A stretch of 64,000 nucleotides of DNA from Sphagnum compactum (lineage: Eukaryota): contig OZ234493.1 of NCBI GenBank assembly GCA_965153455.1, positions 12,638,213 to 12,702,212 on the forward strand, given 5' to 3'. Both the position numbers and the translations under genes were made by a program. Positions 1-40,776 of the stretch are shown here, one piece after another. The notes under the pieces were generated by a model. The model did no database searches and was not told the origin of the DNA. It worked only from the letters and a program-made list of their open reading frames with translations. Numbering within the stretch: position 1 is the stretch's first letter; each line of letters starts with the position of its first letter.

Positions 1-3000
1 TATGGTAAACCACAATTCAAGACTAAAGCTCAAAATGAAAGTCACTCTTTCTCTCATAGAGGCAAGGAGGGAGAGTATGCAAATCCTTGGTAATTTATTT
101 TTTCATATGCTCTTCAATTTAATTTTGATTTTTTTTCCCAACTTATTTTTGAAAAAGTAGTTTGATTTGGTAGCTTCCATACTTTACATGTCCTAAAATG
201 TTCAAACTTTGGCCAATGAATGAGGCTTATCACAAAAGAAAAAACTTTGAACATCTAATGTGCCCACACCTAAGCGATATAAACAACAAATAGTTCACAA
301 TATATTAATATGTAACATATGCATACATCAATTTCAATTTATTCAACATGTATATAATAAGTTGAAACACAAAGAATCTACATCAAATTCTATGTTTCAC
401 AATAGAGAAACGGTGCATGACATTGCAGTTCAATAAAAATTGCACATTGTCAATCTAATTGCACATTAGATTAGAAATCATCCAATGGCACAAAATAAAA
501 TAATTACTCTTCATGTAAAATAATGTAACCACATAATTGTTTGGATAACACTACAAAACATGACAAAAAACACAGGGTGCATAATATGTGATGTGTATGA
601 ATTTTGGTCTGAATCTTGAAAAAATGGTAATTAGATATTGAGTAGAGATTTGCCTAGAAGTTAGAAAGGAAAGTAATTTTTTTTTACAAATTGTGTTATA
701 TGTATAAACATGTTGAAAAAACATTATCATAATGTGGTGACAATGTGTTTTTTTTTTCCCAAAAAATGCCTTCATATCTCTTGCAAGGGTTTTTTTTTGT
801 TGTTGTCAAGATTTGAAGTTTTGCCAAAATAAAAAACATTAAAGTCCATGGGGAATGAAGATTTTCTTTTGGGCAATATTTTTTACCTATTAAAATATAT
901 GTTAATATAATATTAGGTGGTTATATGATGCCATATGGGTAGTAGGACATGTATTTCAAAATTGATCTTCACACATAATAGATGCATATTATGAAAAAAT
1001 AACTTAAAAAATTGAAACCAAGGGTTTTGCTCAAATAAGAAAATTGATAATAGATGAATCTCAAAAGAATTCAAAATATGGTTATTTTATATTGTGTGTG
1101 GGATAAGAAATACAATTGTGCAAAAGCCCTACCCTACTAATTATGAAGAAAAGGAAGAATCAACCAACATTGGTGTGTCCACCCCATTTAGTTTTTCAAT
1201 CCTAAAAAAAGTTACTTCATTTATTTAAATGCAAAATGTGTTTGGGCAATCATGCTAAGAACAAAAGTTGCCCCTTTTTGCAATTCATTCAATTTTCAAT
1301 ACATAAACACACTAGTGCAATTTTTTTAAAAAATTCTTAATTTGTTTTGTTGAACAAAAGAAATTGAAAAAAAATAATTAATTTTATTTTAATCACAAGG
1401 CACATCTTGTTTATGCATTTAATCACATGACTAAAAAGGTTTTTCAAATTGAGCACACCTAATTTTTCAATTTGAATGTGCATTAATTCAAACCATTGTT
1501 TAGACTTCTTTTCCCTCTCTCTCAATCTCTTGCAAATGCAATTATATTTTGTTGGTTTCAATAAATATTGAATGGTATTTGAAGGACATTGTAAATTCAA
1601 TAATTTAAATTGTGGTGTTCGATTTTTTCATTGCATTGTTTCATTTAAAAATGGGGCTAATTTCCCTTTGTTAATACTTTTCTAGACATTAGAAATTGAA
1701 ATAACATGCAAGCCTATTAGTGTCAATTCATTACAAAAATATGGAATGCATAATACCCATTAGAATGCGTGTTATGCATGCTTATCATGAATATAAAAAC
1801 ACAAAAATCATACCTAAAATGAAGCTAACACACATAGAAAGAAAATAAAAACCATGTGCTGCCTTGTAAGGCTACTAGTTGAATGCAAAAAGAAAGTTGG
1901 AAAAAATATTTAAATTATTTTTATGCAAAGAAGGCCCCTTGTATGGGCTATTCCTTATTTTTTGGGCTCAAGCCTTGAGCTATTATTTTTGGCTAAAAGG
2001 CCTCAAATGAAAGGATGCCCTCCATTGCATGGTCTTGCTTCTTAATACATAATCATTTAACACTGAATTGGTGTTAAGGTTTACATTGTTAAGTTTAGCC
2101 TAACATTTAGATAACACGATTAAAAAAAGGTAACCTATGTTAGTTAACATTAACTTAAATGTTAACTAAATTTTTCCACGTTCATTCACACTAAGTTAAT
2201 GTTAACCTAAATTAAAATTTCAAAAAAAGTAGTTATTTACCTTTTTCATGATGGATTTGCATCATCACAAATGTTAATGGTTAGTTATGTTCTCTCTTAA
2301 TGTTCACACTGTTCAAAATTTTGTTTTCCTTCTCTAAAATTTTTTCTCTTTTGAAATACTACACTTCAATGCTTGCACAAATGGTACACAACACCAAAAA
2401 CCATGTAAGAAAAAGCTTTAGTATTGTGTGTTTTTCATAATGCATTTTAGCTTGATACCGAAGCAATGGCATCACCCTGAACTATGGGAAATGAATTTTG
2501 CATTTGATTTTGTAGACTTTGTTCACCATTAATAATTTTCTTGCATTTCACCTCTCACAAATTTACAACAATTTGATTACTTTTGTGATTCATGATGTGT
2601 AAAGTCATTCAAGCTTTTACAATAGTGGGTTGAATTGATTTTTGTTGCATTCTATAAGGCATTTTCTTGTATTCTTGCTAGTACTTCTGTTGTCCATATG
2701 ATGAACACAATAGTTGTTGTGACAATGCTTGGCCATTACAACTTAGACAAATATTGCAACAATAAGTGTCGGTGTTGTTCTTCATGCATGGACCAAATGC
2801 TTATACGACAACATCCTTCTCACATTGTATATGATAGAGCTTGCAACTATCCATTCTTAATTAGGAGCTTTGACATTAAGTTCTTTGCCCCTTTATGCTA
2901 GTGTTGTGGCATCACCACCTATGTTTCAAACATGTGATGGATGCATATTTTTCTATTGCTATTGTTGTAGTTTCTCTTTCTTCATTCAACCTTTACAAAA

Positions 3001-4459: not shown

Positions 4460-4570
4460 AGATACGCCGTCGTCTTGTTGTCGAGGGAAAATACGTATAG
4501 TGTAGAGATACGTCGTCGTCTTGTTGTCGAGGGGGAAAATACGTATAATGTAGAGATACATCGTCGTCTT
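4460..4570. repeat. CpG-rich tandem repeat, ~46-48 bp unit x 2.3, upstream of the GH63 gene
   Basis: AGATACG(C/T)CGTCGTCTTGTTGTCGAGGG(GG)AAAATACGTATA(G/A)TGTAG at 4460 and 4506, partial third copy at 4554; followed by a (GC)n run at ~4585-4598. Confidence 0.9.
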
Positions 4571-4765
4571 CCTCTTCTCGTCGTGCGCGCGCGCGCGCTA
4601 CAAGAAAAAAGTCTGCAATCAACAAACGTCCCAGATCTTTGTCCATTTAGGCTACTACAGTGGAATTCTGAATCACGTACCAAAAAATTTCTTGGCGATG
4701 ATGATCCATAGGCTACATGGCAACAACCCATTCAAAGAAAAATCCGAAAGAACCTTGAAACCATC

Positions 4766-4774
4766 AAACCCTAA
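4766..4774 (+). promoter_or_regulatory. telo-box (AAACCCTAA) in the probable promoter/5' leader of the GH63 gene
   Basis: Exact AAACCCTAA ~340 bp upstream of the proposed ATG; function not shown. Confidence 0.4.
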
Positions 4775-5102
4775 TTTGTTGTTGGTGTTGTTGTTGTTGT
4801 GGTCGTCGATTGTGGGTATATCTGCAAGGAGATGGATCATGGCTGCTGCTGCTGCTCAGGATTTGTTTGTTTGTTTGCTGGTTGTGGCCAACAAAGTAGC
4901 CAGTTTCGTCGCTGAATGAAATCAACCCACTACTACTACTACTACCTCTTGCACCTAGTAAGTTGCACAAAAAAGAGCTTCTTCTTATTGTCTCAGGAGG
5001 AGGAGAACAACACCATGTCTTGTGCATAAGCTTGCGAAGAAGGGCTGTGAGTTTGAGAACAAAAATCTGGAAAGAGAATCGTCATCGAGAAATTGGGCAA
5101 GA

Positions 5103-7455
5103 ATGCAGCAGCGGACATCAAGAATGCATGTGAAGAAGGAAATTATTGGCAAAAAGGAAATTTCATGGGTGCCTGATCAAATGGTGGTCACAAGCTCCAG
5201 CACTCCGTCGTCGACCACACCTCCCAATCAAACAAAAAAGTTGTTGTGGTTCATGCAAAAGGGAAGAAGGAGGCCGCAGCAGCAAATGATGATGGCTTTG
5301 AAAATGCCGGCGATAAGAAGAACCCGCAGCAGCAGTAGATTCACATTCTCATCTTCTTCTTCTTCTTCTACCATTTTTCACGGCCTGCGCGGAATGCTCA
5401 TTTGCGTTTCTTTCGGACTGGTGTGCATCACAATTGCTGCTGTATTGTTGTGCATGCGAGAGGAAGAAGAAGTTTCCAGCCATCCCAGAGAGATTACACC
5501 ATTTCCCACCAAGCTTGTCTCTGCATTACCTCAAGTATTTCCCATCCCCCCCATTCCTCTCTCTCTCTCTCTCTCACAGACACACAAATACACACACACA
5601 CACACACACATCTCTCTTTCTGTGTCACAGACAGAAATTGAAGGAGGAGACAATCTGCAATTCCAAACCCTTTCTCAGAGGTAGAAATCCAAGGAGAAAA
5701 AAACACCCAAACCTGTGTGAATCAATGGAGTCTTGAAGAATTTCAAGCATTGGGTTGTTGTTGTTATTGTTGTTGATCCAGTGATGTGTGGAGTGCAGTT
5801 TCAGGGAGCACACCGTGAGCGTCTTTACTGGGGTACTTATCGCCCAAACCTCTACTTGGGCATTCGAGCCAGGTTTGTAAACAAAACAGCAACAACAGCA
5901 ATCTGACCAGAACCCATCCTTCATGTTGTTCAGTGAGCTTCAAGAGCTTCAAGTCTGGCTTCAAGTCTAGCTTTGAGAGGTTCAAGAGCCTTCTTCAAGA
6001 GTGGGGCATTTATTTGGTTTGGTTCTTTTGCACAGGACTCCAAAATCATTGCTTGCTGGATTGATGTGGCTTGGGCTGAAACAAGGACAAGGCTCCTCTC
6101 TGCGGCATACTTGTGATGAATCTGATGGACTTGCTCGCTATTCTTCATGGGTGCGTCATGATGGCACCACATACGGTCGCCAGGTGAACCACCTGCTGCA
6201 CCAACAGTATTATTGCCATGACCATACAAATGGTTATTTACTACCAAAGACAAATCGATCCTCCACAACCAAACGCTGAAAAACTTGGAGTAGAATTTTG
6301 GAATACCATTGCAAAAGAAAGACAACAACAAAGACACCGACAATGAACGGTGATGATGCTGATGATGATGATGTCTTGTGCAGCAGGTTTAGGGACAGAA
6401 TCAAGCAAGATCTGGTAGAGAGATGGGAAAAGAGTGATGAAAAGTTTTGAAACGTGAGATACAGAAGTTCTCTGATTGCTGCTCCTGCACACATGTGATA
6501 TATATAAATCAGCAGCAGATGACAGTCTTTTGATTTCACTGCAAGTTCTGTTTGCAGGAGATAGTAGATGGAAGTGCCCGTATCACTATATCATTCTTCA
6601 AAAGCAAAGAGCTTGGAAGTGGCTATGGAGGTGACTGGGTAGTCCGTGTCCTTGTTCAGCCTATCAAGAGGTATGTATATATGACCAAAAAGAAGAAGAA
6701 CCAAGCATGACTTGTTGCAGTTTCATGTGCTTTTTTCTTTCTTTTTTTTTGGGGAAGAATTATATTAGTTAAAGAATCAAAAGGTTTTGAAATGAAATCA
6801 CAAGTTTGCTAATGTCATTGAACTGCGCACTTCAAAAGTTGATAGAGAAATTGCTGAAATTCATTTGGGAGCTTGACACATGCTGAGCCATGAGAGAAAA
6901 AATTGCGGAAATCTGCACAGAGAATCAATTGTTTCAGCACCTGAACTTGTGGATTTAGCAGTGCTTGAAATCTGCATGAATCTTAAGTTTCTGATTTTGC
7001 AGAGTAACAGAAACTTTTGGGCTTGTCCTGTAGGAAAGAAGATGAGGAGCAACCAAAACACCCCCACCCAAATGATGTATCATTTTTCTTTTACCTTGCC
7101 AATGAGGAAGGATGCCCACTGAAGCTGTTTCCAAAGCAGCCTTCAGCAATATCAATGCAGCAGGATGACCCCATTGCAACAGGCTCAACAAAGGAGATTG
7201 GTGGCTGGGAGCTTCATGGCATTAAGAAGGTTGTTTGCACCAGCCTCACGATCTCATCTGTTTCCTTACCTCAAATTCCTTACCCTCAATCCTTTGTACT
7301 GGGTTGATCAATCCCTGGATGAGAAAACTGATTCTGTTTGCATGGAGGTTTGAGAGTTTCTGCAGGAAGGAACAACTATGAACTACATGGGATCTCATAC
7401 AAACCACATGCACAATTTGACGGAACTAGTCTGGCAAGCTTTGGAGACACAAGTG

Positions 7456-7491
<36 letters not shown>

Positions 7492-10400
7492 ACATTCATG
7501 TTTTTCCTTGAAAATGTATATGATCCATATATAACAAACAATGGGTGCACTCATGATGTGGGCGTTTCTCAATGGCAGTCAAAACCTCTCATCATTTCTC
7601 TCACCAACATTCACATAAGTGTCCTTTTGATGTTGGGCTGGAAAAGGCAAGAAGAACAGGGACCTTGCAACTTCCAGATGATTCTGACAACCTCCCAAAC
7701 ATAGCCATCTTCCAGGTACACTGAGCTCATTCTTTTTCATAAAAAAGAACAAGCTAAAATGAAAAGAAGCTGCCAGAACTCATGACAGAATGGTTGTACC
7801 TTCAAACTGTTGTTGTGGAGTTTTTTTTTTCTCTGTGATCTCATACCTATATGTTCATTCTTTTTCCTCTCATCTAAATTTGAGCTTTGCAAAGGCACCC
7901 ACATCTTCAAAATGTTCACTGAAACATCCAGTCACATTATGAGGCTACCACTTGTTTCCTCCCTGAGTTTGCTTCTGCAATTTAGCAAAATCAACAAAAC
8001 TCCATTGCCCATACCAGAGTTGCTGCTGTGACTACAAGTTCATAGTGCATCATGCAAGGGTTTATAAACGGTGCCATTCACTAAATAATGCTATGCTGCA
8101 TTTTATGTGCCAAACCAACAATAGTGTCCTGCTGGAGAAATGGCATGTGATTATGTTGATTGTTGTGATGATTAGGTGAGTGGGAAAGCTCCCATGGAGC
8201 TGGATTTTGTTCTTGTGTCAGGCACTCAAACAAGAAATGCTCGGGTGAACTTGCGTGTTAAAAACCTCTCAGGTACTGAACACTTTACCTCTTTTATGGC
8301 TTTCTTTACATTTTGTTTCAGAGCATAGGAACAGGAAAATGGGTTTCAGAGTTTCAACTTGTGTGTGGTGGTTTGATAAACTTCTGTGTATTTTCAGTGC
8401 TACCCATTTTCCATTCCTGCACAAAGGGTGCAAACTATTGATCAAATTAAAATGTGGACAAAGCAGATCATCCCAAAATGTGTATAAGAATTTCTTTGCA
8501 AGCTCCATGGTAGGAAGAGCATGACTGCATTTATATATTGTACATGGGAAACAAGCAGGTGCTGCCCTTAGCAAGAGATTGACAGAGCAAGAAGAGAAAT
8601 TTGAACAGCGATTTGAATCCACATTCAAATTGACAAACCAGGTGTGCTGAAATCCAAAAAACCTTTTCTCTGAGTACATCAAACAATACATACAATACTT
8701 GTACATCAAAACAAAGTTATACAATCTTTGAATACATGTTTTGTTTTGGGTCTTTGTCAAACCAATTTGATCCCATCCCTGAAGCCATAGTAGAACTAAG
8801 CATAAAAACACATGGAAAGCTTTACCAGATTGTGATGAAATTGTTGACATAGATTTGACATGAAGTTGTTGACAGGTGAAGCTGGGAGATCGAGAAATCG
8901 AAGTTGGTCAAGTTGCAATGAGTGGTTTGCTGGGAGGAATAGCCTACTTCTATGGACAATCACGGATTGCTATCCCCCTCAAATTACGGGTGCATATCTT
9001 GTCTAGAAAAGTGTTTTCTTTCTTTGGGTGGATTTTTTTGGTAAGTTGAATAGGACTTGTAATTGACACTTTTGAAATTTGTGAATCAGTTGACACACTC
9101 ACAATTGGTCATTGTAGGCCCACCAAGAAATTATGAGAGCTGGAAGCTTTTGGGAAAATTGGTCAGCTGCTTTATACACTGCAGTTCGCAGTCGTTCATC
9201 ATATCCACATGGCTATTTTGCTGATGAGGGGTACCATCAGCTTCTGATCAGGTGAGAAGTTGGGACTGTTTTTTTTGTTTTGTTTTGTTTAGTTTTAGTT
9301 TTAGTTTAGGCTTCTTCTTTTTTTTTTGGGTGTAAAAAAATTTGTAAACCATTTCAAGTATCACCAGAGTGGACTTGGCAACAAAAATATAGGCTCATTT
9401 TTCATCTCTTTGGACTTTAGACACAATACTTGAAAAACACAAATACTTGAGTAGTTTTGTGCTTAGGAGGACCTATCTCATGTTGGGTATATGGTAAAAG
9501 GGAGGAGAAGAAGAAGGAAGATGACTGGGCCTTAATTTCATTTGGAATATGAATCTGCTGACTGTTCTGCAGTCAATGGGATTGGAAATTGAGCAAAGAC
9601 ATGATTGCACATTGGCTTGATCTCATTAATGTTGATGGGTGGATCCCTCATCAGCAAATTCTGGGAGACGAGGCCCAGAGGTATCCCACCAAATACACAT
9701 GCCCCTCTACATCACCTCCCCAGAATTTGATACCGAGATTGAAGTGGGTTGAAGAGTATGCATGTGGATTGTGGGAAAAAAAGTTCTATGTTGGGCTGTG
9801 GAATCAATTTTCTAGTTTGGGTTGTGAAAACAAATTCTATTAAGGCCTGTGAAAACAATTATATATGGGGTTGTGAAAAACAATTCTCAAGTGTTGGGTG
9901 CAGCAAGGTTTCAGATGCAGCTTTGATCCAGAATACAGAAAGTGCAAATCCCCCTTCCCTCTTCTTAGTGCTTCACAGTAAAATTTCAATCCATCGTGAT
10001 CCTTGATAATTCCATCATACTCAATCCCCAGATCTTAAATTCCTGGAGTCGACTTTGTAACAAAACATAATGTGTAGTTATGTGTCATCAAACGAGCTGT
10101 GTTGTACAATCTCGACAGTACTCTATCATGAAGTGGGTAAAAGAAACAGCATTCAATTTTAAAAAAGACCAGAAGGGATAATCATGGTTAATCAAACAAG
10201 TTAGTATTGTGTAACGTATTCTTCACCTCCATATGACTTGTGAGAATTGCTACAGAATTGGCAACTCGATATGAGACAACATTAGCAGCGGGGAAAAAGG
10301 ATCCAGAGAATTTGTCCTTTTTGAAAGCAATATTTCCACGCTTAAAAGCATGGTTTCATTGGTTCAATTCCACTCAGACTGGTTAGCTCCAAAACCCATG

Positions 10401-13388
10401 TTTTCCTTCCAAACATCCAACATCACAGTAGAGATCAATGCAGAGATGTTGAGCAAGCATCATACATATATGTGTGTGTGCGTGTATGTATATATATGTA
10501 TCCATGGCTGAGAGTTAGATGGTTCAGTTTTTCTAAGAAATGCTTGAACAAGACGGTAGCAGGCAAGGTGGCAGGCAGCTTCTATTGGCATGGTCGTGAT
10601 GCTGAATCGGAGAGTGAGCTGAATCCCAAGGTTCCAAATCCAAACCTCCCTTCAACCCACATCTGACCTTGTGCTCGGTGTTTTGCAACATTGTGTATGG
10701 GGGTTTGACATCCATTCATTCATTTGCATCTGGTGGTTTTTGGTTCTTTTGATGATAAAGTTGGTCCAGGGTTTCTCATCAACAATTTCAGATCCACATT
10801 TTCCATCAAATCTGCCATAATTGGATCACCAAATCAAGGATCTGATTGAATGAACTGTGAAGCAGGTGATGGATATCTAATAAGCAAGCTTCCAATCCTG
10901 ACTCCTAACTAATTGTTCTTGACCAATGGGTGTTACTGCATGCAGACGGTGATGTCAGGAATGGATGACTACCCACGAGCTTCACATCCCAGCAAGGATG
11001 AGCGCCACTTGGATCTGCATTGTTGGATGGCCTTTGCTTCACAAACAATGGCAAAGATCGCCTCACTGGTGGATATTTCCTCTTACACGGTAAAAATGGA
11101 GGTTCACTGTATCTCCAGTGCAAAATTGGAGACAGAATATTGGAACCCTGACTGAAGTCTGCAGTATGTGTAATATGTACCTATGAACTCAGCAATGGAT
11201 AGATAGTGCAGAGAAGTGGCATTGAGCAGTGCAAGTCTACCAGTTAACTTACTGTCAGCGCACTGGAGTGAAGAATCCACTGTTTTTGGGGGAACTGGGT
11301 GTGCCAGAAGTATCGAGATACTGCAGCCTGGCTGACAGATCTGAAGCTCCTCAATGAGGTATATATGAATACATCATTATTGTACATTTGAGATCACTTG
11401 AGCATAATTTTTTCATGTTCCACATTTGCATTAACAAAGTGCATGAGCTAATAATCTCTTGTTCAAACCACCCAATTTCAAAGGATTCATAACTCACACT
11501 CATATTTGAGAGCTAGCTGCTATCCTGATTTAGTTGCATATATTATCATGTTCTGAAATTGTGACAATGCTGTTTTTAGATACCCGAAGAGTATAGTTCA
11601 AATGGTTGTGTTAATGATTTTTTTCCCTCTTTGTTGTGTAGCTACATTATGAGGAGCGATTGGGACGCTACTTTGATTTCGGAAATCATTCAGAGATGGT
11701 ATGGAAATCATTGTATTTAGTCTAGTCTTCAATACTGTGCGATTGTGATACATGTTGTTATGTACAGTTGTTGAGTCTGGTGCATCTTGGGAGACCCCAA
11801 ATTGCGTTTTTTGTATGTGCTTCATGTGCGGCCTTTTTCTCTGGATAGTAGATAAAATGGATGGAACTCATTTAGATTATGAGTTTCTTTGCTTACTTTA
11901 ATTGTGCTTTGTGGGTGGGACGATCTTTGTGGTGTTTGTATGGTGAAAAAAAAGATCAAACTTTATCAGAAAACAACAGTGGAGCCACGCACTGGATATG
12001 TTCATTCAGAGGTGCGACGACTAGTGATGGAGCTTCCTGAGTTGAGATGGGTGCCTCAATATGGTTATAACAGCCTCTTTCCTCTTGTGTTCCGTATGTT
12101 TCCCCTGGTACGCAGTATTAAATAAATGTCATATCTTTTGACATATAATAACTCCTGGACTGATCACAAGTAATTCTTAGTGAACTCTGAAGTGGAAACT
12201 TTTTAGAGTGAGGTCAAGGCCCAAGACTCGGGTGGTTTTTGCCCAAAGTACCCAACAAGATTGGGTGCCTGGAGAGATATTAATGCCTAAGAAAGTTGGC
12301 TTGGTTTTTGGCCTTTGTGAATTTCCCATGGAGTTGGTTTACAGACCTCACTCCAGTTTGCACACCAGTTAGTTCTGCTGCAGAGTGAGATGTACCTATG
12401 GACTGATTATGGACTCCGCTCTCTTGCCACTAGCAGGTGCAATATTTCTTTGCATTAATGTATTTTTTGGGTAGGTCTCAGATTTTGCAGAGTTTTGTAT
12501 TTGCATCAAAATTTTGCCTTTTTTTTTTGGGTGGGTGTCAAATTGTGCACTCTGCTTGAAAACTCAGTCAAATGAGTGTAAAATTTGGCTTAATGAATTT
12601 ATAGCTCAATGTTTATGAAGCACAACATGGAGAATGAGTCACCTCATTGGAGAGGACGAGTGTGGTTAAACATCAACTATCTTGTTCTTTCTGCCCTTGA
12701 TTACTACTCCCAAGGTTGGCACACCCACCCAAACCCATCACCACAATTGATTTTGTTGTTCTATGTTTTGCAATTGCATTTGCATCCTCAAAATATCAAT
12801 TCTTTTCAATGGGTATCAGAAAATGCTCTTGTACTTCAATTTGGACTTTTGCATCCCGGATTTTAGTTTTCAAAGGGAAATGACTAGAAACTCAGATCCA
12901 AATTGCCATGATCGACAGAACCAGGGCCTAATAGTGATAAGGCCACAGATGTATATCTCAAGCTTCGTGAAAATATAATCCGGTATCAATTTCTGCTTGT
13001 GGTTTTTTATATATTGTTCTCATTATTTGTGGTTTTTCTTTCTAGCATTTTAAGATGTTTGACAAATTGGGTTATTCATATCTTTGCCATCAAAATCAGT
13101 ATAATACCTCTTATAGTGAACTCAAGCTAGGGGTGCATTTTTTTTTACAGATTTCCATAAATGTTTTGATTGCAAAGAACAATCCAACCTCGGTGCAAGG
13201 TTTTGTTCAGATGGTGAGAGTCAGTGGATGATGGATATGGGTGAAGGAATGTGGTGGAATGCTACTACGAAAGCGGTTACTTGTGGGAGAGTTATGACAA
13301 CAGCAATAATGGAGAAGGATCAAAGGGCTTTCACCCATTTGCAGGCTCAACAGCCCTCATAGTCCTAATTATGGGAGAGATCTACTAA
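5103..13388 (+). CDS. GCS1: Mannosyl-oligosaccharide glucosidase (ER glucosidase I, GH63)-like protein, divergent paralog; 23 exons, ~911 aa, type II membrane topology
   Basis: GT-AG exons 5103-5534, 5799-5872, 6036-6183, 6558-6670, 7034-7229, 7366-7452, 7647-7715, 8176-8272, 8559-8641, 8876-8989, 9118-9251, 9573-9680, 9904-9977, 10256-10381, 10563-10630, 10946-11089, 11308-11358, 11642-11698, 11955-12107, 12345-12436, 12605-12714, 12919-12982, 13247-13388 splice in phase with no stop. Motifs: N-terminal TM segment, [72 protein letters not shown]. The start ATG is uncertain because several in-frame ATGs exist. Confidence 0.92.
9765..9900. repeat. intronic minisatellite, ~26 bp unit x ~5
   Basis: Degenerate GGG(T/C)TGTG(G/A)AAA(C)AATT(C/T)T units in intron 12 of the GH63 gene, running up to the acceptor at 9903. 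Confidence 0.75.
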
Positions 13389-15316
13389 AGCTTTCGTCAA
13401 TGATGGGTCTGTTGAAAGGCAATGGATCTCATCAAAAACACAATCGCACCAAGGAACCCCAACAACCATCCTTGATCATCATTGCAGGTATGTAATTTAT
13501 TGTTCAAGGAGCCTTTCAAAGAAATGTTTTTGAAAATTTTGAGCTGTGTGGTTTTCTACTTTTCATTTTTGCAAAATTGGAGAATGCTATGGTATTTCTC
13601 TCTTCATTATGGAAGAGAGAGTTTGCATCTATGTAGGATTTGGGGATTGGCTTGAAATTGTCATCTTCACATTGTCATGATCCTACTACATATGACAATT
13701 CTTGAGTGTTGGGTGGAGTTGGTTGAATTAAGGGCTAAACTGCTCGGAATTTTCTGGTGCTGCTGATTGGCCTTGTCAAACGTTCAACCCAACCTTTTGG
13801 ACTTTTAGGTTTTGCAAGGAACACAACACTCATTTATTCTCAAGGTTTTCTTTGAGCTGAAAAGAACAAAAAACCCATGTCCACTCAGAAAAAACATACA
13901 TCGATGTTTTTGAATGGATGTAGGTAATAAGAGTAAAACTTTCAAAAACTGATTTTCGTATTACACCTAAAATAGACATCTTTTTACAATGTTCATTAAG
14001 TATTAAAATTCTTTTTGTTTTCAAACACATACATGCCACAATGAAGTATAAACCCACATTGGTGGATCAACTAAGAGACATGACAAATATGATAATAGAT
14101 TCAGGGAGGCTAATCAAATCTCTTTCGTACCTAGCGTGTAGCCAAAATAGTGCAATTAGGGCAAAACAAATGTGAGAACATCTTGTAATGTTAAGAGTTA
14201 GTATCTCCACACACAGCAGTAAAATGACCTGAAAACTGAATTTTGGATGAAGTATGGTAGTGAAAGTGTATGAAACTCAGTTTTGGGCCTGTAAATGTAC
14301 CCAAAAGATAGATAGTAAGCAAAGATAAAGATGCCAAATTATTGCGGAGATTATAATTAGTTGTTGCATCAATGAACAGACCAAGTGTAAGAAAATTATC
14401 AAATTAGAGCAAATCCACCTACAACCTCCTTCTGCATGATAATGCACCCTCTAAATATAGTAGTGGATTTTTTGGAGGGCTTTCCACACTTGAAAGAAAT
14501 TTTCCCTGTGTATTTGGAAGAGAACCATATATATCAATATTCCCCCTCCCATAGAAGAGGACTGATCTTGCACCTTCTCTTAAGTGAGCATAAGAATGCT
14601 CCCACCCTTAAGAGTAGGAGGCATAAGAACCCGACCCCTCTAGCATTCCATGATCTTCTACACATATGCTTTAGTTTCGATAACATTCACATGCCTTACG
14701 ATCAGTACAACCTACATATATAGGGGATCAAAAATGAGATCCAATTCTCTTGAATACAAAGTTTTGTCAACATCCGAAGGTTTGGGTCCTCTATACTTTT
14801 CTCACAAAAGTCTTGATATCTAAGTGATACTCTTCAGCTCTTATAATACTATCATCCTGTTGTATTCCTACACAACTAGGAGGTTGATTGATATCCAGGA
14901 GACAATCTGAGAGTTTGCACAAACACAGAAGACCATAGAAGCTGCTATATTATCAAAATACAGAAAGTTTGTAGAACCTATAAAATTTTCTCACTTAAGA
15001 ATGGATCATACAGACACAGAGTATATACTATATATACAGTGTAGGATTCGGGTTTGGGGAACAAGATTTCACAAGAAAGTGAACATTGTTCTGGAACTGC
15101 TGCTGCAACTGTTGGAAGGGCTTGCTGTTCCTGATAGGCACATTTACTTAATCCAAGCTTTGCGCCTACTAGGGAAGGATTCAAAAGTAGGGCGCAATTA
15201 GCTTGGTTGTTTGGCAGCAGTATTTGCTGGAAAAATGCAAAGGAATTGAAGAAGTTGATCAGAAGGGTGTGTGGATTGATTCTACACTGCAGGAAAGAAA
15301 GACAAGACACATTCTC

Positions 15317-18490: not shown

Positions 18491-21400
18491 GCTGCAACAA
18501 CAAGCACGAGGATTCCCTGATTTTCTCTTCTTCTCCACCTCAACTCCTCCTCCTCTTCTCTTCTCTGGAAACCACCAACAAGAAGAGAGAAATGAAACAA
18601 CCACCCAAGACGACTACTACTACTACTACTACTACTACGCCTCTTCTCCACGATCAAATTCTTGGCACCATCGTTCCACAGAATCGCAACGAAGAAGAAG
18701 ACGAAAGACCTACCACCCACATACCCAAGAACAACAACCCCCACTTCCTTCCTTCCTTCCTTCCCTCCTGCCTTCCTTCCTTTCTTCCTCGCTAGACAAC
18801 AATCTCAGTTGCTGGAGAAATAACTCGAAAACCACACGAGAAAGAATTTAGAGAGAGAGAGAGAGAGAGAGGAATTCTGCTTCAAGGAATTCCAGTCACG
18901 AACAAGAAGGAATGATAAGTAAGCAAGAAAAGCTGGAGGAGAGACGGCGATGGAGTTTGTCATGAGACTGTCGGTGTGTCTGTCTGTCTGTCTGTCTTGT
19001 CTGTTCTGTAGTAGCAAGAGCCAAGGAGAAAAGACTGTTAGCGGAAAATCTATTTGGAGAGAGAGGAATGCGATGCGATGTAATGCAATGCTCAACAACA
19101 GCAACAGCAGCAAAATGGGAGGAGAAAGAGAGAAAGACCGAGCGAGCGTCGAGAGAGAACGAGAACGAGAACGTGGAGAGTCCCAACGGCTTCATTCTGG
19201 TTTGAATGTGGTTTCAGCGATCCGTCCGTTTAGCCACAAACCCTAAAATGCCAATTTGTGCATCGTTGATCCATCCATTTGAACGGACCGGATTTTGTAT
19301 TGTCGCCAACCAAAGTGGCGATGATACACAGGAAGGCTTAGTAGCCAGATTTGGCTATAATAAAGCTAAAAATATTTATTAAGTACATTTAAAGCAAATG
19401 GGTTTATTTAGCTTGTTTTCAACCAGCAATTTTGGTGGTAAACCGAGTTTCATCCTCTCTTTCCTTTTTCCTGAGCGCCTCCACTGCTGGCTGCTACATA
19501 TGTTTTTCACTGCTGCTCCTAACTGTACAACTACGATAATTAGTCTCGAACCTTGTGCATTAAATGCTAGGTATCGATCGGCATTTCATCCCATTTTCAT
19601 ACTGAGTTGCAGTATTTCATACTGAGATTTATTAAAATGCCTTTACTTTATAGGGTTTCAGGTTTTAGGCAGGACCTCGGCAACCATTGAGAGTTGAAGC
19701 TTCTTCTTCTTCATTTTTTTTCGCATTTCAAAAACTACATCAAAACCTTGTTGGGTTTCACTTTTATTAATCAATCTATTTTGTGCATTCAAGGTTAGAG
19801 ATTTTTGAGTTTGTAAATTGAGTTTTTTTTTTTTTTTTGTTTGGCTCTTCTTCTTGTGTTGCTACTCTCTCTTCTTGTGTTGCATTGTAGTTTGAGTCAT
19901 ATCACTTTGTTACTTGACTTCTCTTGTATTGATGTTTGTTCCTCCTATGTTGTTGCTCACGTCCTCTTACATTGTTACTTTTTCTTCTTGCATTGTTGTT
20001 ATTTAGGTCCTTACATTGTTACTCAACTTCTCTTGCATTATTGTTCTAGTTTTATTTTTTGTTTTTTTTACCATTTTTTGATCATTTTTGTAATTTAAAA
20101 AAACATTTTGGTAAAAAAATTGAACTTTCGATAACTAACCTTTGAAAATTAATCAAATGATATTAAATTTGTGAAAATTGTCACTTAAAAAATTGGTTGA
20201 ATATGTTTTTTCAAAAGTTTAATATCTTGGTTGGTTTTGTTTATGGAGAAAAAAATTTTAAAACCTAATTTATTTTTTAAATGTCATGTGAAAACTAAAA
20301 CTAATGGTTTTCACCCAAAAAATGAAAATTGACCAACATTGAAAAAACTAACATTGTCCAATTACCAACATGTGTAAATAACGAATATGTATAGGATATG
20401 TATAGATACATATCTTAAAGTTATGGGAAAAAACTTAAACAAATGTCATTCATTGGTATATCTTGATGCATATTCATATCCAACAAAATATTTTTCATCA
20501 ATAACTTGATACATAGCCATATCCATCATAATGTGTGTGTGTGTGCCTAAATATGTATCCTATGATCTATGCATATCAAAATTTTAGGGTTTTAGGGTGT
20601 AGTCACACAAACACAAGCCATAACAAGTGTAACCAATGGTTAGTTTTTCACATTTAAAAGTGATAATTTAATTTGGTGTTGAAAGTATATATTTTTTTAA
20701 TATAGTAAGGTTCATAACACATCATTGGAACATGTGAATTAATTAAAAAAATATCCGATGAATAATAAACTTTCAAAAGTTTTCATTAAACATTATAACA
20801 CATTTTTTTAGCACTAAAAAGATTTATAAATAGACTTCAAAACTTTTGACAATTACATATATTTTGAAATCTTTTACATAAACCTTAACATAATAATATT
20901 AAAAATTTTGAAAAAAAATTTAAAGAATATTTCACCAAAAGCAGTCCCAAAAGCAAGTGGGCGTGTTATCCAATTTGCACCTTTTAGGTTTATTGGGGTT
21001 GAAGGACATGGGCTTTGAAATTTTTCAAGCTTTTGTTATTTCAATGGCTTGGATACACGAAATAACCAAAAAAAAAAAAAAAGGTGAGTACAATTTTTGT
21101 TTTGTTTTGTGATCATTGTCATTCATATTGCAATGATGAAATTTGACAAAATTCGATGTGGTGATAAGGTGTTTCACTTTTATATTTTCACTTTTGGACT
21201 AATTCATCGTCCTATTTAATAGTGATAATAGCCACATTGAAAGGTTTTTGGTGAAACTTTGTTTTTCACAAATGTGTGGGTATGTGTGTGTGCAAATAAG
21301 AAGAAGATGTTAGTAGTATCAATGACATAGCACAGGTTAGGCCACGATGAACTAATGCCAAAGTCAAATCATTTATATCTTTCACTTAGAGAGATGATTT

Positions 21401-24039
21401 TTTTGTTATCAAGTCAAGGATTCATGCCAACAAATCCTTTGAAATTTTGTTACAATATTGTGATTTTTCCTATTGTTTTTATATAGAGTTTGCGAATGCT
21501 AGACAAATTGACAAGTGAGACAATGGAACACATTACCATTCAAGATACATGGCATATACAAGCCAACTTGGAACAAAATGCAACAACACATTTTATTGAA
21601 CACTTCTTGAAAAATTGAGACAAGCCTAGTGGCTAACAATTCCACTATTCACCAGTTTTAGCAAATTAGACAAGATATCAGTTATTAGTAAAAAGTATTG
21701 TTGTACCCATTGATAAGCCAACACTACATTTCAAGTCAGCAACACTTTGGACCAACTTTATAGGAAAATTAGTAACATTTACACCATAACATGCCAAGAG
21801 AAGGTCAACATCCTAAAAGTTGGTCGCACAATTTTCTTAACATTGGCATCAAACAAGCTAAAACAAATAACATGCACATATCTAGAATCATAATATGAAA
21901 TAAATAACATAAATGATTGACTCACAACAAAAATTAATGCAACTTTTCTTGCAAATCATGACTTTCTAATTGCACAATAGTTGCAAAACGTCTTCATCAC
22001 AACAACTTCAATACAACAAGCACACAAAAAAACTTGTCATGACCTAAACACAACAATTTTGCATACCTTATTCATCATATTCCTCTATCCCACTTGAGGA
22101 AGGCAATATTTCTTTCTCATGCAATATCTTGATACTTGAACTACAAAGTCACCCAAATATACCATAAGAATCAATTATAATGGGTTAAAGCTAACATTCT
22201 TTTATCAAACACACAAGCACGTGGTGAAAAGAAACAAACCTTTTATTGTTTGTCCACTATGCATCACTATTCAATAGCCATTCATAATCTCCAATACATA
22301 AAACCATTTAATGGTTCTTCAATTCATTTATCACAAAGAGAGTAGTATACCATTTTAAAGCACAACACAACATCTTGGACTCTTCATGTTGCAAGGATTT
22401 ATCTTCTCCTCCAAGATTCAACACATTTGCAAAGGCAAATGCATATGTTAGCACATGGAAAACACAAATAGACAAGTTTGTTGAACGACTAGGGGTAGAT
22501 CCATGCCTTGGACATTGCAAATTGTTGATGGGGAGTTCACCATCCTCTATATTGATCAAGAAGATTCCTTGTCCAAGTCTTAAGCAAGAATAATGTTAAA
22601 GAATTATTTTTTTTGAGGTCTTCATTCTTGGTAAGCTTATTAAATTTTTGTGATATATAACTTAAAAACAAATTTATGGAACCAATATGACTTTGAACAA
22701 GCCCAAACTATTATGGGAAAGATGAAACAAATTGTTGTTGACAAATTTAGCTAACAATCTAACTTGTTTATAAAAGAACAACAATCACCTTTTAAACCAA
22801 AAGAAATTAAAGTAGGATCAAAGTGTAATGATGCAAATTTAAATGATTCTCATCTCACCAAAAAAAATTTAACAGAAGTATAAAACGTGATGTGTTTATT
22901 TTTTCAAATCATAACATTCAAAACCTGAAAGTTTATGTAGGTCCAAATACAAACCCACAATGTCAATATTGTCAGTATATGAAAAATTCACTTATTAGAA
23001 TGAAGAAAGATGTGTCAAAGTATAGGCCTTTTGAACAAAACTTTATATTAAAATTGTTACATGTAGGACACAATAAATCAAATGTGATAAAATTGAAACC
23101 CAAAATATAAATAATCATAACAATATAGGTAAGAATGGTTACAACGTAGTGAAAGGACGTTCTACATCTAGTTTGTAATATCAAATTTTTATATCTTAAA
23201 ACATCATAAAACCATATGCAAAAAATGTTGAAATTTCTTTTGGGACCACTTTGTACCTTGCATTCCTTGATATTAAGGTGATTTTTGAAACAAACTTTGG
23301 GTACCTTGGTATTTTCCAAGCCAAGTTTATTAGAGTTATGATGTTAGCACCCCCTTCAATTTAATGGGTACATAGTGTTTGAACTCATTTAAAGATGCTA
23401 AAACTTTTGACATTACAATCATCAATCCAAATTTCATAACAAGATGCCAACTCATAGTAAACAATAGTAGTTGTTTTTGGCTTATGTTTTGCACCCAAAT
23501 GAGAGTATTTTTGTCATGATTCCCCCCAGCAACCACATTACTTAATCGGGCAAGCTGAACTTGTGTTCCATATACTACTATCTAAACTTGTAATATAAGC
23601 CTAGAATACAAAACAAGTATAGAATTTGTCAAAAGGTCCTTTCCTCCCCCTCTCCCTCCATGTTACTTGATTGTGCAAGTTGGTTGGTTGGTAGGTTAAT
23701 TGCCATTGTTATCCCTAAAACAAATAACAAGCTATGTTAGAACAAAAACTAGTTAATTGTAAAACAAATATGGAACGTATTTTACTCTTGAATTGGGGGG
23801 ATACTATAGTTTACTACTTAGTGAGACAACAAAGGTTTTGTTAATGCAACAATAAGGTGGGTGTGTATGCTATTATAGAAAGATAAAAATGATATTATAT
23901 CTCTCACCATGATTCAAACATGTACTTTGAGTATATATAAGTGCCAACAATGTTAGCCCATAATTTTTTTTCCAAATAAGTATGTTTACTAAGGAATCAA
24001 GTCAAGCAAAGATATCGACATTGTGTTGGAAACTGTGAA

Positions 24040-24420
24040 CCATTTCCAATCTACAACTCAAAAATTTAATTAATCCACATGAGTTCCAATTTCATTGGAA
24101 ACTCAAAACAATTAGTCTCCCAAAAAAATTAAATCCAAATCAATGTGTTTTCCAAAAAAATTGAAATGTAAACAACAAAAAGTGTGTGTGAAATTGCAAA
24201 CATGTTTATGATCACAACTCAAAATTTGATCAACCTACACGAATTCCAATTTCATTGAAAGTTCAAACCAAATTGTTTGAAAAAAATAATTCCAAATTAG
24301 TGCATTTACTAAATAATCAAATCACACAATGAGTTGGAAATTATGTACCCAAATGCAATCCCATTTCCAATTTTGACGAATCTACACAATTCCCAATTTC
24401 ATCAAAAGCTCAAACCAAAT
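24040..24420. repeat. degenerate tandem repeat, ~150-165 bp unit x ~2.5
   Basis: Recurring CAACTCAAAA(A)TTT...(C/T)ACA..(G/A)TTCCAATTTCATTG(G/A)AA..TCAAA(A/C)CAA at ~24053, ~24214 and partially ~24370. Confidence 0.65.
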
Positions 24421-27143
24421 ACCTCTTTTCTCCATTCAATATTTTGTCTTTGCAACAATTTGTAAATAAATATGTAGGAGTCAAGTAGAATTGGGTACCT
24501 ACATAAATCTTGCATTTGGATATCCACTTGCCACTTGTTGCACATACATATATTATGTTTGGATTAAAAGCACAAGATTTCACATTTTTGTATGCAAAAA
24601 GGCTAAATAGATCTAATTGTGAAAAAGTTGTTACTCCCAACCTTAAGAAAAATTTGAGAAGATTGGGGTGTACATGATTGTTTCACAATTACTTTAAAGT
24701 CAACCAATTAATAACTATTAATTCCTTGATATTTGTGGAACACCTTTATAAGATCATTATACTTTCAAGAGTATCTAAAATGATGTCAAGACATTCTTTA
24801 GTGTCCAAATTAGTTTGCAAATCTATAAGATTGCACATCCATGAAGAGATTCTTCAATAACATTTTTGTTTACCTCATGTCTCTACCATTACTCTACCAT
24901 TGACTTCATCAACTTGTAACAACAATAGGTGTAAATAAATACACATACTACATGCTCAAAAATTTTGGCAACAATTATGGAATTTGACATTTCTGGCACA
25001 TTTGCAAAAGCAAATAAGAAAACTTAGTCATGCTTATTAGCAACTTCTCAACAGGCATAGCTAACACAAGTGTAGTCATATTAACATGTACCATTAACAA
25101 TCATAACCACTGCTTATTTTTTTGAATAAAAATGATAATAGATTTTTTTACTAAAATGTTATTGTGAATAATCATTGTACATATCATAAAAATTTGAAAT
25201 CAATTTAATGAGTAAAAAATATGTAATTTACATTTTTAAGGACTTGTAACCACTATTTAAAAACAATTTTGACACTAAAAACAAAATTTGAAAAAACAAT
25301 TATGACATGTTTTAGAATTTATTTTAATATACACCTTAACATAATAGCATCAAAAAAACTTTAAATTTTTTTACTATTTTCATAAAGATGTATTAAAAAT
25401 ATTTTTAAAATGTTATTCAAAATAATAATAATAAATAATGGTCTAAGGGGGCATGTGTAGCCCTTATAGCATGGTTGGACCCACACCAAAATACAATAGT
25501 ATCCTCATTCAAACTATAGGGTGTAAGCAAGATAAAGTGAACAATTTGATTTACTTGTCAAAATTGGAACAAATAGATTTCAAATAACAACAAAACCCTT
25601 GTCAAATTGTGGAACATTGAATGTTTTCATTTCAATGACTAAATATGATATATGCTTACTTTAATGTGCACTGATTTCATAATTATAAAAGTAGGTTTTT
25701 AAAAATACAAGTGATTTTTATGTCTACTTTTCATTGTGGGCTTTTGGTTTCAAGTAGGTGTCAAGTAGGTTCTTACAAAAAAGAAATAATTTTTTTTTTA
25801 CGACTTGCTAAAACATATGTTGATATTCATTTCCTAACTTATTACATATCAATTTCATTAATTTTTATAACCAAAAAACAGGTTTGAACACATATTTTTA
25901 ATTAGTTTTAAATGTATTTTTTATTTACTTTTAAAATTCATTTGCTTTTACTTTTTCTTAGAATTAAATTCTTATAAATTTAATATAATCAATTAATGTT
26001 ACTTGACACATACTTTCACATAATTTGATGTTTCTTTATGGTAGTTATATGAGAGGTGCAAATTAAAGTGGAAACATCTACTATTTTGGTATACTTTATC
26101 TTACTTTGACCCTACAATAAAACTTGTGAAGGTATAAAGTTTGATTTCATTTCAACTTGCCCCTATACAAACAAAATATCTACAGTAAGGTGTAAAAGGT
26201 CTTACATAAATGGTTGTGGGTAGAACCTCCTAGATCCTGACTATAATTCTTCAAGCACACCATAGTTCTTGATGTATCCATTTTTCCTTTCATTGTAATT
26301 TTGTTTGCAAGCTCTTGAACCCTTCTTTTGAACCCACCATGTTACAATTGTTTATACCCTACTATAAATTATAGCATTAGATTAAGTACCATTTAACTAT
26401 TTGCAAAATGCATGTGCCATGAGATTCGTGAAAATGAAATGTTTGATAGTTAACATTTATAAAAACACAAATATGTTTTTTGTGCATTGTGACAAATGCT
26501 ACCACATCCTAAGTTCAATTAATTCCAACATGTTAATCACTTCAAGCTAAAAGCTTGGGGAAGATTTCAAAACTTCTAAAACATTTCAATACATTTCAAA
26601 TAGCCAATACACAATGACAAAAAAAAAAAAAAAAACACCTAACTTGTGTTGCACTTAAGAAATAGTTATGTACTTCAAACAAAACAAATGGTAGAATCTA
26701 TTACAATATACACTAGCTGTTGAATCACAAGCTTTGAAATGTGTCTTACTTGGTGAGTTGTGGCATAGTGAAGATCTTGACATCCAAATATGCAAGCATC
26801 ATCTGGTTTTGTGTTCATAATACTACATCTTATTTGCTTACTTTCCACTTGGATAAAACTTCAACATTGGACTGCAAATTGGGTTACACAAAGACTTTGA
26901 CACCTAATACTTGGCATTGGGAATCACAAAAAATGTTTTTGGTAATAAGCATTAGCTTTGTTATTGATCGACAACTTGTCCTTTCTAAAAGATACTTTAG
27001 AACAAGATCATGACAGTAAGAACAGAGGATTGGCCAAATTTAAAATTATAATGCAATAAATGAAATGTGTAAACAAATCAAAACTAGATGAACATAATAA
27101 GTATGTCACCTAGAAAACCAAATGTAAAAAAAAAAATCTGAAA

Positions 27144-27440
27144 CACTAGTAGAAATCAGCCAAAATGTAACCACTCCATTTACGACTACATGCGACTTGT
27201 AGTCGTTTGCGACTAGATTTGGGAACATTTGCAACTACAGAACCATATTTCAACTATTTTGGTCATTCTCACAACTATGATGCAACTATTAGAAATTTCA
27301 TCCTATTGGTTGCATCAATTTTACATTTATTTTCATCCATTAATAGGTTGATATGTCCCATTAGTCACAATAGTCAACAAATTAGTTGCATCCTAAAGGT
27401 ATTCTACAATGATATAGGGGTGTATTTTAATGTATGTACT

Positions 27441-27481
<41 letters not shown>

Positions 27482-30400: not shown

Positions 30401-30570
30401 GAAATGTATTTGTTGACTTTTTCTTTCATACAATACCCTTTGTCATTTGCGACTAGTTTATCACATGCGACTTGTTTTAGGCAACTAAAGGGATTTTAGT
30501 TGCAAAATGTCTCTTGCGACTAAAATTTAGTCGCAAAGACTAGTCAAAAATACATGTTTTTCTTCTAGTG
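27144..30570. mobile_element. Non-autonomous CACTA (En/Spm) DNA transposon carrying an AT-rich satellite
   Basis: Left end CACTAGTAGAAA (27144), right end TTTCTTCTAGTG (30570), 3-bp TSD AAA/AAA, subterminal (T)GCGACT/AGTCG repeats at both ends, no transposase ORF. Confidence 0.85.
27520..28765. repeat. AT-rich satellite (~20-22 bp subunits, ~362 bp higher-order duplication) inside CACTA element 1
   Basis: Repeating AATTGA(T/C)ATTT(G/C)AATTC / TTATTTGAATCT units; the block at 28091 recurs nearly identically at 28453. Confidence 0.85.
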
Positions 30571-30886
30571 AAAGGAGTCCAAAGGTCATTATTTTTTATG
30601 TTTTGTTGCCATCAAAACTCAAGGAACAAATTGGTTCTAAAAAATAGACATTCGTTAAAAATCCTTGCTTCAAAACATTGTACCCAAAGTAGAATTCAAG
30701 CCCCAAACCCATAATTCCACAATAATATTTCTCTTTGGTTTCACAAAACCATTATAGTTTCTTGTAAATATGGAATTTTTTTATAATTCACCTAACTTTT
30801 GGATACCCCACAAGCAAGGTAATAAGGTCTCCGAATAGGGAAGGAAGAATCTATGTAATCCATTGCAACTCATAACAATTTTGAGC

Positions 30887-40625: not shown

Positions 40626-40776
40626 GTGGCATAGCCTAGATGGCCAATGTTTAAATGTCACGTGGCATAACCTAGGTGACCAATGTTTAGATGCCATGTG
40701 GTTTAACTTGGGTGGCCATTATTTAAATGCCACGTGGCTTAATTTGGGTGGCCACTGTTTAAATGCCACATGGCAT
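40626..40776. repeat. 36-bp tandem repeat x 4 with a GCCACGTGGC-like palindrome, inside CACTA element 2
   Basis: GTGGCATA(G/A)CCTAG(A/G)TG(G/A)CCAATGTTTA(A/G)ATG(T/C)CA(C/T) units. Confidence 0.85.

Follow-up and report, generated by a model that had tools for sequence, protein, structure and literature searches.

A divergent glucosidase I paralog of peat mosses with an apparently remodelled substrate site

Glucosidase I is usually regarded as the single, highly conserved gatekeeper of N-glycan processing. We analysed a 64,000-nucleotide stretch of Sphagnum compactum DNA (contig OZ234493.1; this whole stretch is called the window, and positions are given in it) and the divergent glucosidase I-like gene of glycoside hydrolase family 63 (GH63) that it carries, hereafter the paralog. 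The closest described system is plant GCS1/KNOPF (EC 3.2.1.106), represented here by the canonical Sphagnum copies P0006 and L020. Like the paralog, it has the GH63 N- and C-terminal Pfam domains, a 23-exon layout, an Arg-bearing N-terminal tail, a single anchor, and the Asp-Asp, Glu and Asp-Glu motifs. The paralog differed from it in sequence (55% identity), in the number of near-invariant alignment columns changed (23 versus 4 of 204), in the apparently relaxed constraint on residues 145–515 and in its longer tail, with an exon 1 of 432 nt versus 318 nt. The glucosidase I structures of mouse (5MHF), Chaetomium (7R6J and others) and yeast (Cwh41p, 4J5T) matched in sequence with E = 1.6e-152, 4.8e-76 and 6.9e-59, respectively. 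The same three were the best matches of an AlphaFold2 (AF2) model, with target-normalised template-modelling (TM) scores of 0.85, 0.75–0.79 and 0.75. Compared with these enzymes, FLWDEGFH, IPREQ, NTEHDPPYWRGP and FTGW were altered in the paralog. YWRGRVW of the E. coli enzyme YgjK resembles HWRGRVW of the paralog. Unlike the paralog, however, YgjK is soluble and periplasmic, and it keeps the Trp of its ...FSW motif where the paralog has Ser. The liverwort Calypogeia fissa has four GH63 glucosidase I-like proteins (P0014, P0022, P0023 and P0107), and the last three form a separate, longer-branched clade of lineage-specific extra copies, as with the paralog. In contrast to the paralog, these extra copies kept nearly all of the invariant motif residues. 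They share its state at isolated sites, namely Glu818 (all three), Ile726 (P0022 and P0023), and Tyr500 and Met647 (P0107).

The replaced residues were identified by comparison with 121 other GH63 glucosidase I homologues longer than 600 residues, which were obtained from homology searches with the short fragments P0001 and P0002 excluded. The set spans ostracod and Chara to angiosperms and includes the liverwort extra copies. Eight positions that were invariant in 121/121 homologues were replaced in the paralog: P495R, R502H, L505F, W506A, F510Y, E543Q, L643V and W899S. The paralog state was also found in 0/121 homologues at Y485N, F504Y, R542H, P555S, H817N, Y821H, P825R, Q880S and T897A, giving 17 tabulated positions in total. 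Within residues 495–511, P, F, F, R, F, L, W and F were replaced, and Asp507 and Glu508 were kept. At the GWIPREQILG site, the Arg present in 119/121 of the others and the Glu present in 121/121 were both replaced. The paralog did not match the motif set of a processing alpha-glucosidase I (EC 3.2.1.106), that is PSRxFFPRGFLWDEGFH, GWIPREQILG, NTEHDPPYWRGP and FTGW. The canonical S. fallax protein P0006 retained all these residues and every classical motif. An earlier reading of the sequence alone had claimed that several near-invariant motifs changed together, and the 17 positions with 0/121 homologues bore this out. It had also raised the question of whether the substitutions might be common among canonical plant GCS1 orthologues. 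This was not so.

The counts of 23 and 4 changed columns come from alignment A1, which has 59 rows: P0003, the S. balticum orthologue of the paralog; P0006; and 57 non-Sphagnum sequences hand-picked to span lineages. Its conserved set is the 204 columns that were at least 95% conserved among the 57 non-Sphagnum rows. Of these, 181 (~89%) were kept in the paralog. Residues 486–566 contain 43 of these 204 columns and 13 of the 23 changes (hypergeometric p = 7e-5; the segment was picked post hoc). The 23 changed positions were fixed across the Sphagnum orthologues, with 5–7 loci covering each position and one exception at residue 708. At that residue (11645–11647) the window encodes the canonical His, whereas Tyr is found in all six other orthologous loci and in S. 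balticum.

Some of these positions could be related to ligand contacts. In Chaetomium glucosidase I complexes, as reviewed in PMC11427655, inhibitor tails stack on Phe417 and/or Phe475 and touch Phe416 and Pro472. A HMMER alignment (chain-index offset 2) equated Phe416/Phe417 with FF of PSRPFFPRG and Pro472/Phe475 with P and F of SKVPKEF. The equivalents of Phe416, Phe417, Pro472 and Phe475 in the paralog were Ser, Tyr, Ser and Ala, so that all four contacts described there were replaced. The sequence-only reading had taken the altered residues to line the glucose pocket. This was supported in part, namely for these four ligand contacts. The aglycone (+) side of the substrate site is clearly remodelled, and the segment in which the replacements concentrate is the one that holds ligand-contacting aglycone-side residues of the solved fungal enzyme.

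The catalytic motifs were kept, including the Asp-Asp of SGMDDYPR, the Glu of LWESY and the Asp-Glu of ADEG. One Asp of SGMDDYPR is presumably the general acid, and Asp648/Asp649 are putatively assigned as acid and Asp507 as fixer in glucosidase I by analogy. Asp648/Asp649 and Asp507 sit in invariant columns and were fixed in all 6–7 orthologous loci, and the LWESY Glu column was invariant in A1. Enzymes of clan GH-G have in common Trp residues under the -1 glucose and three carboxylates, namely the acid (Asp), the base (Glu) and the 'fixer' (Asp); D501 and E727 are named for YgjK (PMC13671375). In an hhalign comparison, Glu879 aligned with Glu751 of the YgjK precursor, which is Glu727, the general base, in the numbering of that paper. 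The hhalign of the A1 profile to YgjK covered only about the last 200 residues (probability 86%) and stopped short of the regions of Asp648/Asp649 and Asp507. Within the aligned part, Trp899, which is Ser in the paralog, paired with the Trp of the YgjK ...FSW motif.

The gene model was derived from the window DNA with the 912-residue P0003, listed as an "unnamed protein product", as the guide. Exon 16 used as a query retrieved P0003 with 100% identity across the exon. The spliced model has 23 exons, GT..AG at all introns, and 2736 nt corresponding to 911 codons plus the stop, with zero internal stops. The open frame has its first in-frame ATG at 5103. The product matched P0003 in 886/913 alignment columns (97% identity). 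The rebuilt model agreed with the sequence-only reading in its 23 in-frame exons without a stop, and the motif coordinates given there were all correct (residues 495–511 and 538–547, SGMDDYPR, PHWRGRVW in exon 21, and LWESY and FAGS in exon 23). No second GH63 locus was found within the 64-kb window, which has this single GH63 gene.

Pfam scores and the AF2 model were made on the 97% identical P0003. The GH63 N-terminal domain (PF16923) scored 132.4 bits (cut-off 23.8), and the canonical P0006 scored 122.2. For the C-terminal domain (PF03200), P0003 scored 561.9 bits (cut-off 22.4) and P0006 685.7, a drop of 124 bits. The AF2 model had a mean predicted local distance difference test (pLDDT) of 77.7 and a predicted TM score (pTM) of 0.80. 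Its best Foldseek match was mouse glucosidase I (5mhf_A-D), with a TM of 0.84–0.86 when target-normalised and 0.71–0.72 when query-normalised, followed by Chaetomium, 4j5t (yeast) and YgjK. By sequence and predicted fold, the paralog is a GH63 protein, and the two-domain GH63 fold was kept in the model. Low-confidence active-site loops in the model (P0003 637–648, 805–824 and 882–894) were considered as a sign of a reshaped pocket. This was rejected because the canonical P0006, when folded with the alignment used for P0003, shows low confidence in the same loops (589–604 and 756–775).

The N-terminal tail of 96 residues begins with MQQRTSRM and holds RRR and RRTR, and it is followed by a single hydrophobic stretch at residues 97–118. 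The AF2 model of P0003 was disordered over residues 1–95 and then formed a helix at 95–127. In Arabidopsis GCSI, di-arginine motifs at the N terminus of the cytosolic tail are enough for residence in the endoplasmic reticulum (ER) (PMC2799409). Because N-terminal RxxR/Arg clusters precede one hydrophobic anchor in the paralog, it can reasonably be predicted to be a type II membrane protein that resides in the ER or the early secretory pathway.

A search with P0003 residues 140–912 gave 631 proteins with E <= 1e-10 among 8000 candidates, and the best 120 of the 631 were listed. The best non-self match of P0003 was S. fallax BDL97_19G064400 (P0006, 864 residues) with 57% identity, and Ceratodon, Physcomitrium, liverworts, ferns and seed plants came next in the ranking. 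The moss-metagenome loci L015, L017, L018 and L020 likewise contain the canonical gene in complete form, with 23 exons. The gene was therefore correctly described as a paralog by the sequence-only reading, since a canonical GCS1 exists in Sphagnum. The window protein and canonical L020 were identical at 470/858 aligned residues (55%). The proportion of synonymous differences (pS) was 0.70, the synonymous divergence (dS) ~2 and the nonsynonymous divergence (dN) 0.36, with synonymous sites saturated. Of the 23 exons in each of the two genes, 12 were equal in length and 7 differed by multiples of 3. Intron 18 of canonical L020 (6021–6181) is GC-AG, its one such intron, and intron 18 of the paralog is GT-AG.

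Trees were built from 31 rows (quick) and 20 rows (careful) chosen from 124 proteins, and the omitted rows were mostly angiosperms. The divergent pair was placed within mosses (99/98), outside the canonical clade of S. fallax with Ceratodon and Physcomitrium (100/99). Its stem branch was 0.78, versus 0.32 for canonical Sphagnum. Forcing an all-Sphagnum clade cost 20.9 log-likelihood units and was rejected by the approximately unbiased (AU) test (p = 0.004). These results indicated that the paralog is an ancient duplicate of the ER glucosidase I, kept in Sphagnum beside canonical GCS1. No orthologue outside Sphagnum that was closer than the canonical copies was found among the best 120 of 631 near-length matches or among 70 shorter proteins. 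Among the short matches of intermediate identity that were inspected, P0153, P0162 and P0190 were canonical Sphagnum fragments, and P0179 has canonical motifs. As to whether the paralog is shared across mosses, which the sequence-only reading had left to be checked, it was shared with the same substitutions across Sphagnum, in 5–7 orthologous loci per position and in DNA contigs of organisms B and D. This did not extend to a closer-than-canonical orthologue outside Sphagnum among the matches listed. A very divergent eukaryotic GH63 protein, P0004 (653 residues, branch 2.6), adjoined Chara in the quick tree, and its changes overlap some of the positions changed in the paralog (PRGSLWDEGFH, GWLPGEVVLG, PPRWRGSIW and YLSEQYD).

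Selection was examined within Sphagnum. Metagenome contigs were scanned and yielded 21 loci, comprising 12 genomic orthologues of the paralog, 3 cDNA contigs (L001–L003), 5 canonical loci and L021, which was dropped as it matched low-complexity sequence only. The 12 genomic orthologues had 93–97% nucleotide identity. No stops or frameshifts were found in the 15 paralog loci, and the sole indels were in-frame and located in the Ser run of exon 1. Between the window and the full-length L005 there were 24 nonsynonymous (N) and 18 synonymous (S) differences, with a ratio of the two rates (omega) of 0.37 (p = 0.002 against neutrality). Comparison with L007 gave 32 N : 14 S and omega 0.64, which was not different from neutral (p = 0.12). 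When distinct alternative codons were counted over the 15 loci, residues 145–405 (13 N : 5 S, omega 0.77) and 406–515 (11 N : 3 S, omega 1.06) showed no significant constraint. Residues 516–911 gave 19 N : 22 S and omega 0.23 (p = 6e-6), and exons 20–23, with 5 N : 12 S and omega 0.11 (p = 1.5e-5), were the most constrained part of the gene. At similar divergence, the canonical gene had omega 0.26–0.29 overall, 0.16–0.19 in the N-terminal part and 0.32–0.36 in the C-terminal part. The C-terminal ~400 residues of the paralog (516–911) are under purifying selection. For this part, the view that the gene is still selected was confirmed.

Of the sampled words of the analysed stretch, 45–100% were present in sequencing runs that carry five coded species labels (organisms A–E), and four runs were aligned. 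In X9 (organism B) and X13 (organism D), recorded as 'DNA?', contigs covered every one of the 30 bins, differing at 86 and 211 letters, respectively. X22 consists of polyA RNA raw reads under the species label of the best-matching run, and ~12% of the run was read. It gave 335 aligned reads, of which 314 had at least 99% identity. First mates lay almost all on the - strand, so the RNA of the gene comes from the + strand, given the usual stranded library. At least 6 GT..AG junctions were each supported by 8–14 reads, and bins wholly inside introns 4, 7 and 11 had zero depth. The gene is thus expressed, and it is spliced as modelled. At the 5' end only (5000–6400), a minority of X22 reads had the first mate on the + strand, at a depth of 0.07–1.8. 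Weak antisense or divergent transcription could explain these reads, as could library noise. Loose ends of X22 reads at 11320 and 11354 ran, as judged by eye, into a near-match of exon 18 of canonical L020. The canonical copy is therefore expressed in the same material.

The highest X22 depth (23.8) was found in bin 12100–12383, which is mostly intron 19. RNA contig 13 of X15 and the cDNA L003 read through this intron, and the JGI protein cluster P0002 (14 members) ends with ...FPLVSSIK, in which VSSIK is intron-encoded. In the window, read-through would extend the frame by five codons (VRSIK) to a stop that lies far ahead of the base Glu. Other events were seen in the metatranscriptome contigs. 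In L001 exon 9 was skipped and intron 11 kept, in L002 introns 2 and 3 were kept, and in L003 introns 16, 19 and 20 were kept. A fully spliced, translated mRNA must nevertheless matter, because exons 20–23 are the most constrained. Retention of intron 19 was treated as partial or regulatory and not as decay, and the 30-bin depth table was too coarse to quantify it. Use of the intron-retaining RNA contigs as evidence of decay was weakened, as the canonical fragments P0153, P0162 and P0190 also enter introns. An RNA gene in intron 19 as the cause of the depth was unsupported, since no Rfam match at the gathering score was found in 4500–14000.

The best explanation of these results, in which we place about even confidence, is that the locus encodes a maintained GH63 protein of ER type whose substrate site has been remodelled and which would be an active glycosidase of altered specificity. 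A glucoside would still be positioned between the retained acid, base and 'fixer' carboxylates, and the Glc3 arm of Glc3Man9GlcNAc2 would no longer be recognised as it is by GCS1. A different alpha-glucoside or glycan would therefore be hydrolysed, and the paralog would have undergone neofunctionalisation through its remodelled substrate site. Several points weigh against this explanation. The three catalytic carboxylates would be kept by chance with ~70% likelihood because ~89% of the conserved columns were kept anyway, so that their retention is weak evidence and no proof of catalysis. Trp899, His817, Trp506 (beside the fixer Asp) and Arg542/Glu543 may be residues of the glucose (-1) subsite. 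If so, loss of catalysis would be as plausible as a change of specificity. Residues 145–515 (5799–9251) were almost neutral within Sphagnum (pooled 24 N : 8 S, omega 0.88), with an excess of replacements over the canonical copy (Fisher p = 0.02); this region could be under relaxed or diversifying selection, and substitution counts were small throughout. Intron 19 is seemingly retained in RNA, which would truncate the protein ahead of the base Glu, and each of the three metatranscriptome contigs shows at least one unproductive event. Finally, long-branch attraction could account for the deep placement in the tree, and the group used in the AU test was named only after the tree had been seen.

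Part of this evidence would fit a non-catalytic, lectin-like or scaffolding pseudoenzyme, which keeps the fold and the anchor and binds glucosylated glycans or ER partner proteins. Trp506, Trp899, Arg502, Glu543 and Pro495 were lost although invariant in 121/121 homologues, and the -1 subsite of clan GH-G depends on a conserved Trp platform together with acid, base and fixer (PMC13671375). The chance expectation for the carboxylates, with 23/204 columns changed, and the product without the base Glu that RNA retaining intron 19 would encode point the same way. However, the Asp pair of SGMDDYPR, Glu879 and Asp507 were fixed in all 6–7 orthologous loci, the base-bearing exons 20–23 were the most constrained (omega 0.11), and the lost residues are only candidate members of the -1 subsite. 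We consider such a pseudoenzyme rather unlikely, and sequence alone cannot decide between it and an altered specificity, the two alternatives that the sequence-only reading had put forward. The fold, family, topology and catalytic carboxylates would also suit a second true processing glucosidase I, which would tolerate the substitutions through compensation and continue to remove the terminal alpha-1,2-glucose from Glc3Man9GlcNAc2, perhaps in another tissue or condition. Some changes were conservative (three Phe-to-Tyr replacements, Leu to Phe, Asp to Glu and Leu to Val), and the active bacterial GH63 enzyme YgjK likewise has Arg in place of the Pro of YWRGP. This explanation is nevertheless improbable in view of the joint change of 8 positions invariant in 121 homologues, the replacement of all four + side ligand contacts known from the Chaetomium complexes, the C-terminal Pfam score 124 bits below that of the canonical copy and the long stem branch of 0.78. 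An incipient pseudogene, that is a duplicate still transcribed but no longer needed, would account for the omega of ~0.9 in residues 145–515, the overall omega of 0.64 against L007 (p = 0.12), and the retained introns and skipped exon in RNA contigs. We regard it as very improbable. The 911-codon frame stayed open despite synonymous saturation since the duplication, zero stops or frameshifts occurred across 15 orthologous loci, omega was 0.23 for residues 516–911 and 0.11 for exons 20–23 (both highly significant), and the canonical gene likewise gives intron-retaining cDNA fragments (P0153, P0162 and P0190).

The features of the gene are collected in Table 1. Introns 1 and 6 contain (CT)n/(CA)n microsatellites (5546–5626 and 7450–7505), which were passed over as repeats in the read alignment. 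Elsewhere in the window, a Pfam scan of ten long open reading frames gave nine without a match. The remaining one, at 56955–57533 on the - strand, matched tetratricopeptide repeats (TPR_1, E = 4e-16) and is probably an exon of a neighbouring gene. The G+C content was 19–33% in 20000–32000 and 36000–44000, presumably intergenic or repeat DNA, and 39–48% in gene-like regions.

Table 1. Features of the divergent GH63 gene in the window (UTR, untranslated region; aa, amino acid residues; X22 and X15, RNA runs)
Feature	Position	Strand	Basis
Divergent GH63 (glucosidase I-like) coding span	5103..13388	+	spliced model; polyA RNA junctions agree
5' UTR, minimum extent	4655..5102	+	metatranscriptome contig L001 starts 4655, L002 starts 4886
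Exon 1 (aa 1-144): Arg/Ser/Gln-rich tail (predicted cytosolic), predicted membrane anchor, stem	5103..5534	+	junction 5534/5799: 8 X22 reads, one X15 contig
Predicted type II membrane anchor, hydrophobic aa 97-118 (22 aa)	5391..5456	+	sequence; AF2 helix 95-127 in P0003
Exon 2	5799..5872	+	model, RNA reads
Exon 3	6036..6183	+	model
Exon 4	6558..6670	+	model
Exon 5	7034..7229	+	model
Exon 6	7366..7452	+	model
Exon 7	7647..7715	+	model; junction 7715/8176 in 8 X22 reads
Exon 8	8176..8272	+	model, RNA reads
Exon 9, skipped in L001	8559..8641	+	model; junction 8641/8876 in 9 X22 reads
Exon 10	8876..8989	+	model
Exon 11	9118..9251	+	model; junction 9251/9573 in 10 X22 reads
Altered motif aa 495-511, consensus PSRSFFPRGFLWDEGFH	9187..9237	+	alignment; fixed in 6/6 covering orthologous loci
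Exon 12	9573..9680	+	model
Altered motif aa 538-547, consensus GWIPREQILG	9637..9666	+	alignment; fixed in 5/5 loci
Exon 13	9904..9977	+	model
KVSDAA aa 553-558, consensus KVPEEF	9905..9922	+	alignment
Exon 14	10256..10381	+	model
Exon 15	10563..10630	+	model; 4 X22 reads with loose ends at 10944 hold exon 15 end
Exon 16	10946..11089	+	model, P0003 match
SGMDDYPR aa 645-652, both Asp kept	10955..10978	+	invariant columns in A1; Asp-Asp in 7/7 loci
Exon 17	11308..11358	+	model; junction 11358/11642 in 14 X22 reads
Exon 18	11642..11698	+	model; junction 11698/11955 in 12 X22 reads
Exon 19	11955..12107	+	model
Intron 19, 237 nt, apparently often retained in RNA	12108..12344	+	X22 depth, X15 contig 13, L003, P0002
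Exon 20	12345..12436	+	model
Exon 21	12605..12714	+	model
Altered motif aa 814-827 (contains PHWRGRVW), consensus NTEHDPPYWRGPIW	12624..12665	+	alignment; fixed in 7/7 loci
Exon 22	12919..12982	+	model
Exon 23 including stop codon	13247..13388	+	model
LWESY aa 877-881, Glu879 (13287) kept	13281..13295	+	hhalign to YgjK; Glu in 6/6 loci
FAGS aa 896-899, consensus FTGW	13338..13349	+	alignment; Trp in 121/121 other homologues
3' UTR, minimum extent	13389..13962	+	cDNA contig L003 reaches 13962

No published account of a Sphagnum GH63 paralog was found in a literature search. We tentatively propose, as a possibility that is still doubtful, that this is an ER-resident GH63 protein kept in Sphagnum since before the split from other mosses, with a glycan-processing or -sensing activity novel for eukaryotes. 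It might cleave an alpha-glucoside other than the Glc3 cap or read glucosylated N-glycans uncut; its N-terminal half may be under relaxed or diversifying selection, and its output would perhaps be tuned by intron 19 retention. If the protein is redundant or inactive, the finding shrinks to an ordinary divergent paralog. In the 121 homologues, which range from plants to animals, the substrate-site motifs do not vary, and a maintained copy in which they were rewritten would be a natural experiment on the specificity residues of GH63. Peat mosses, whose cell walls and glycans are chemically unusual, matter ecologically as carbon-storing plants, and the paralog may point to an uncharacterised glycan-handling step in their secretory pathway.

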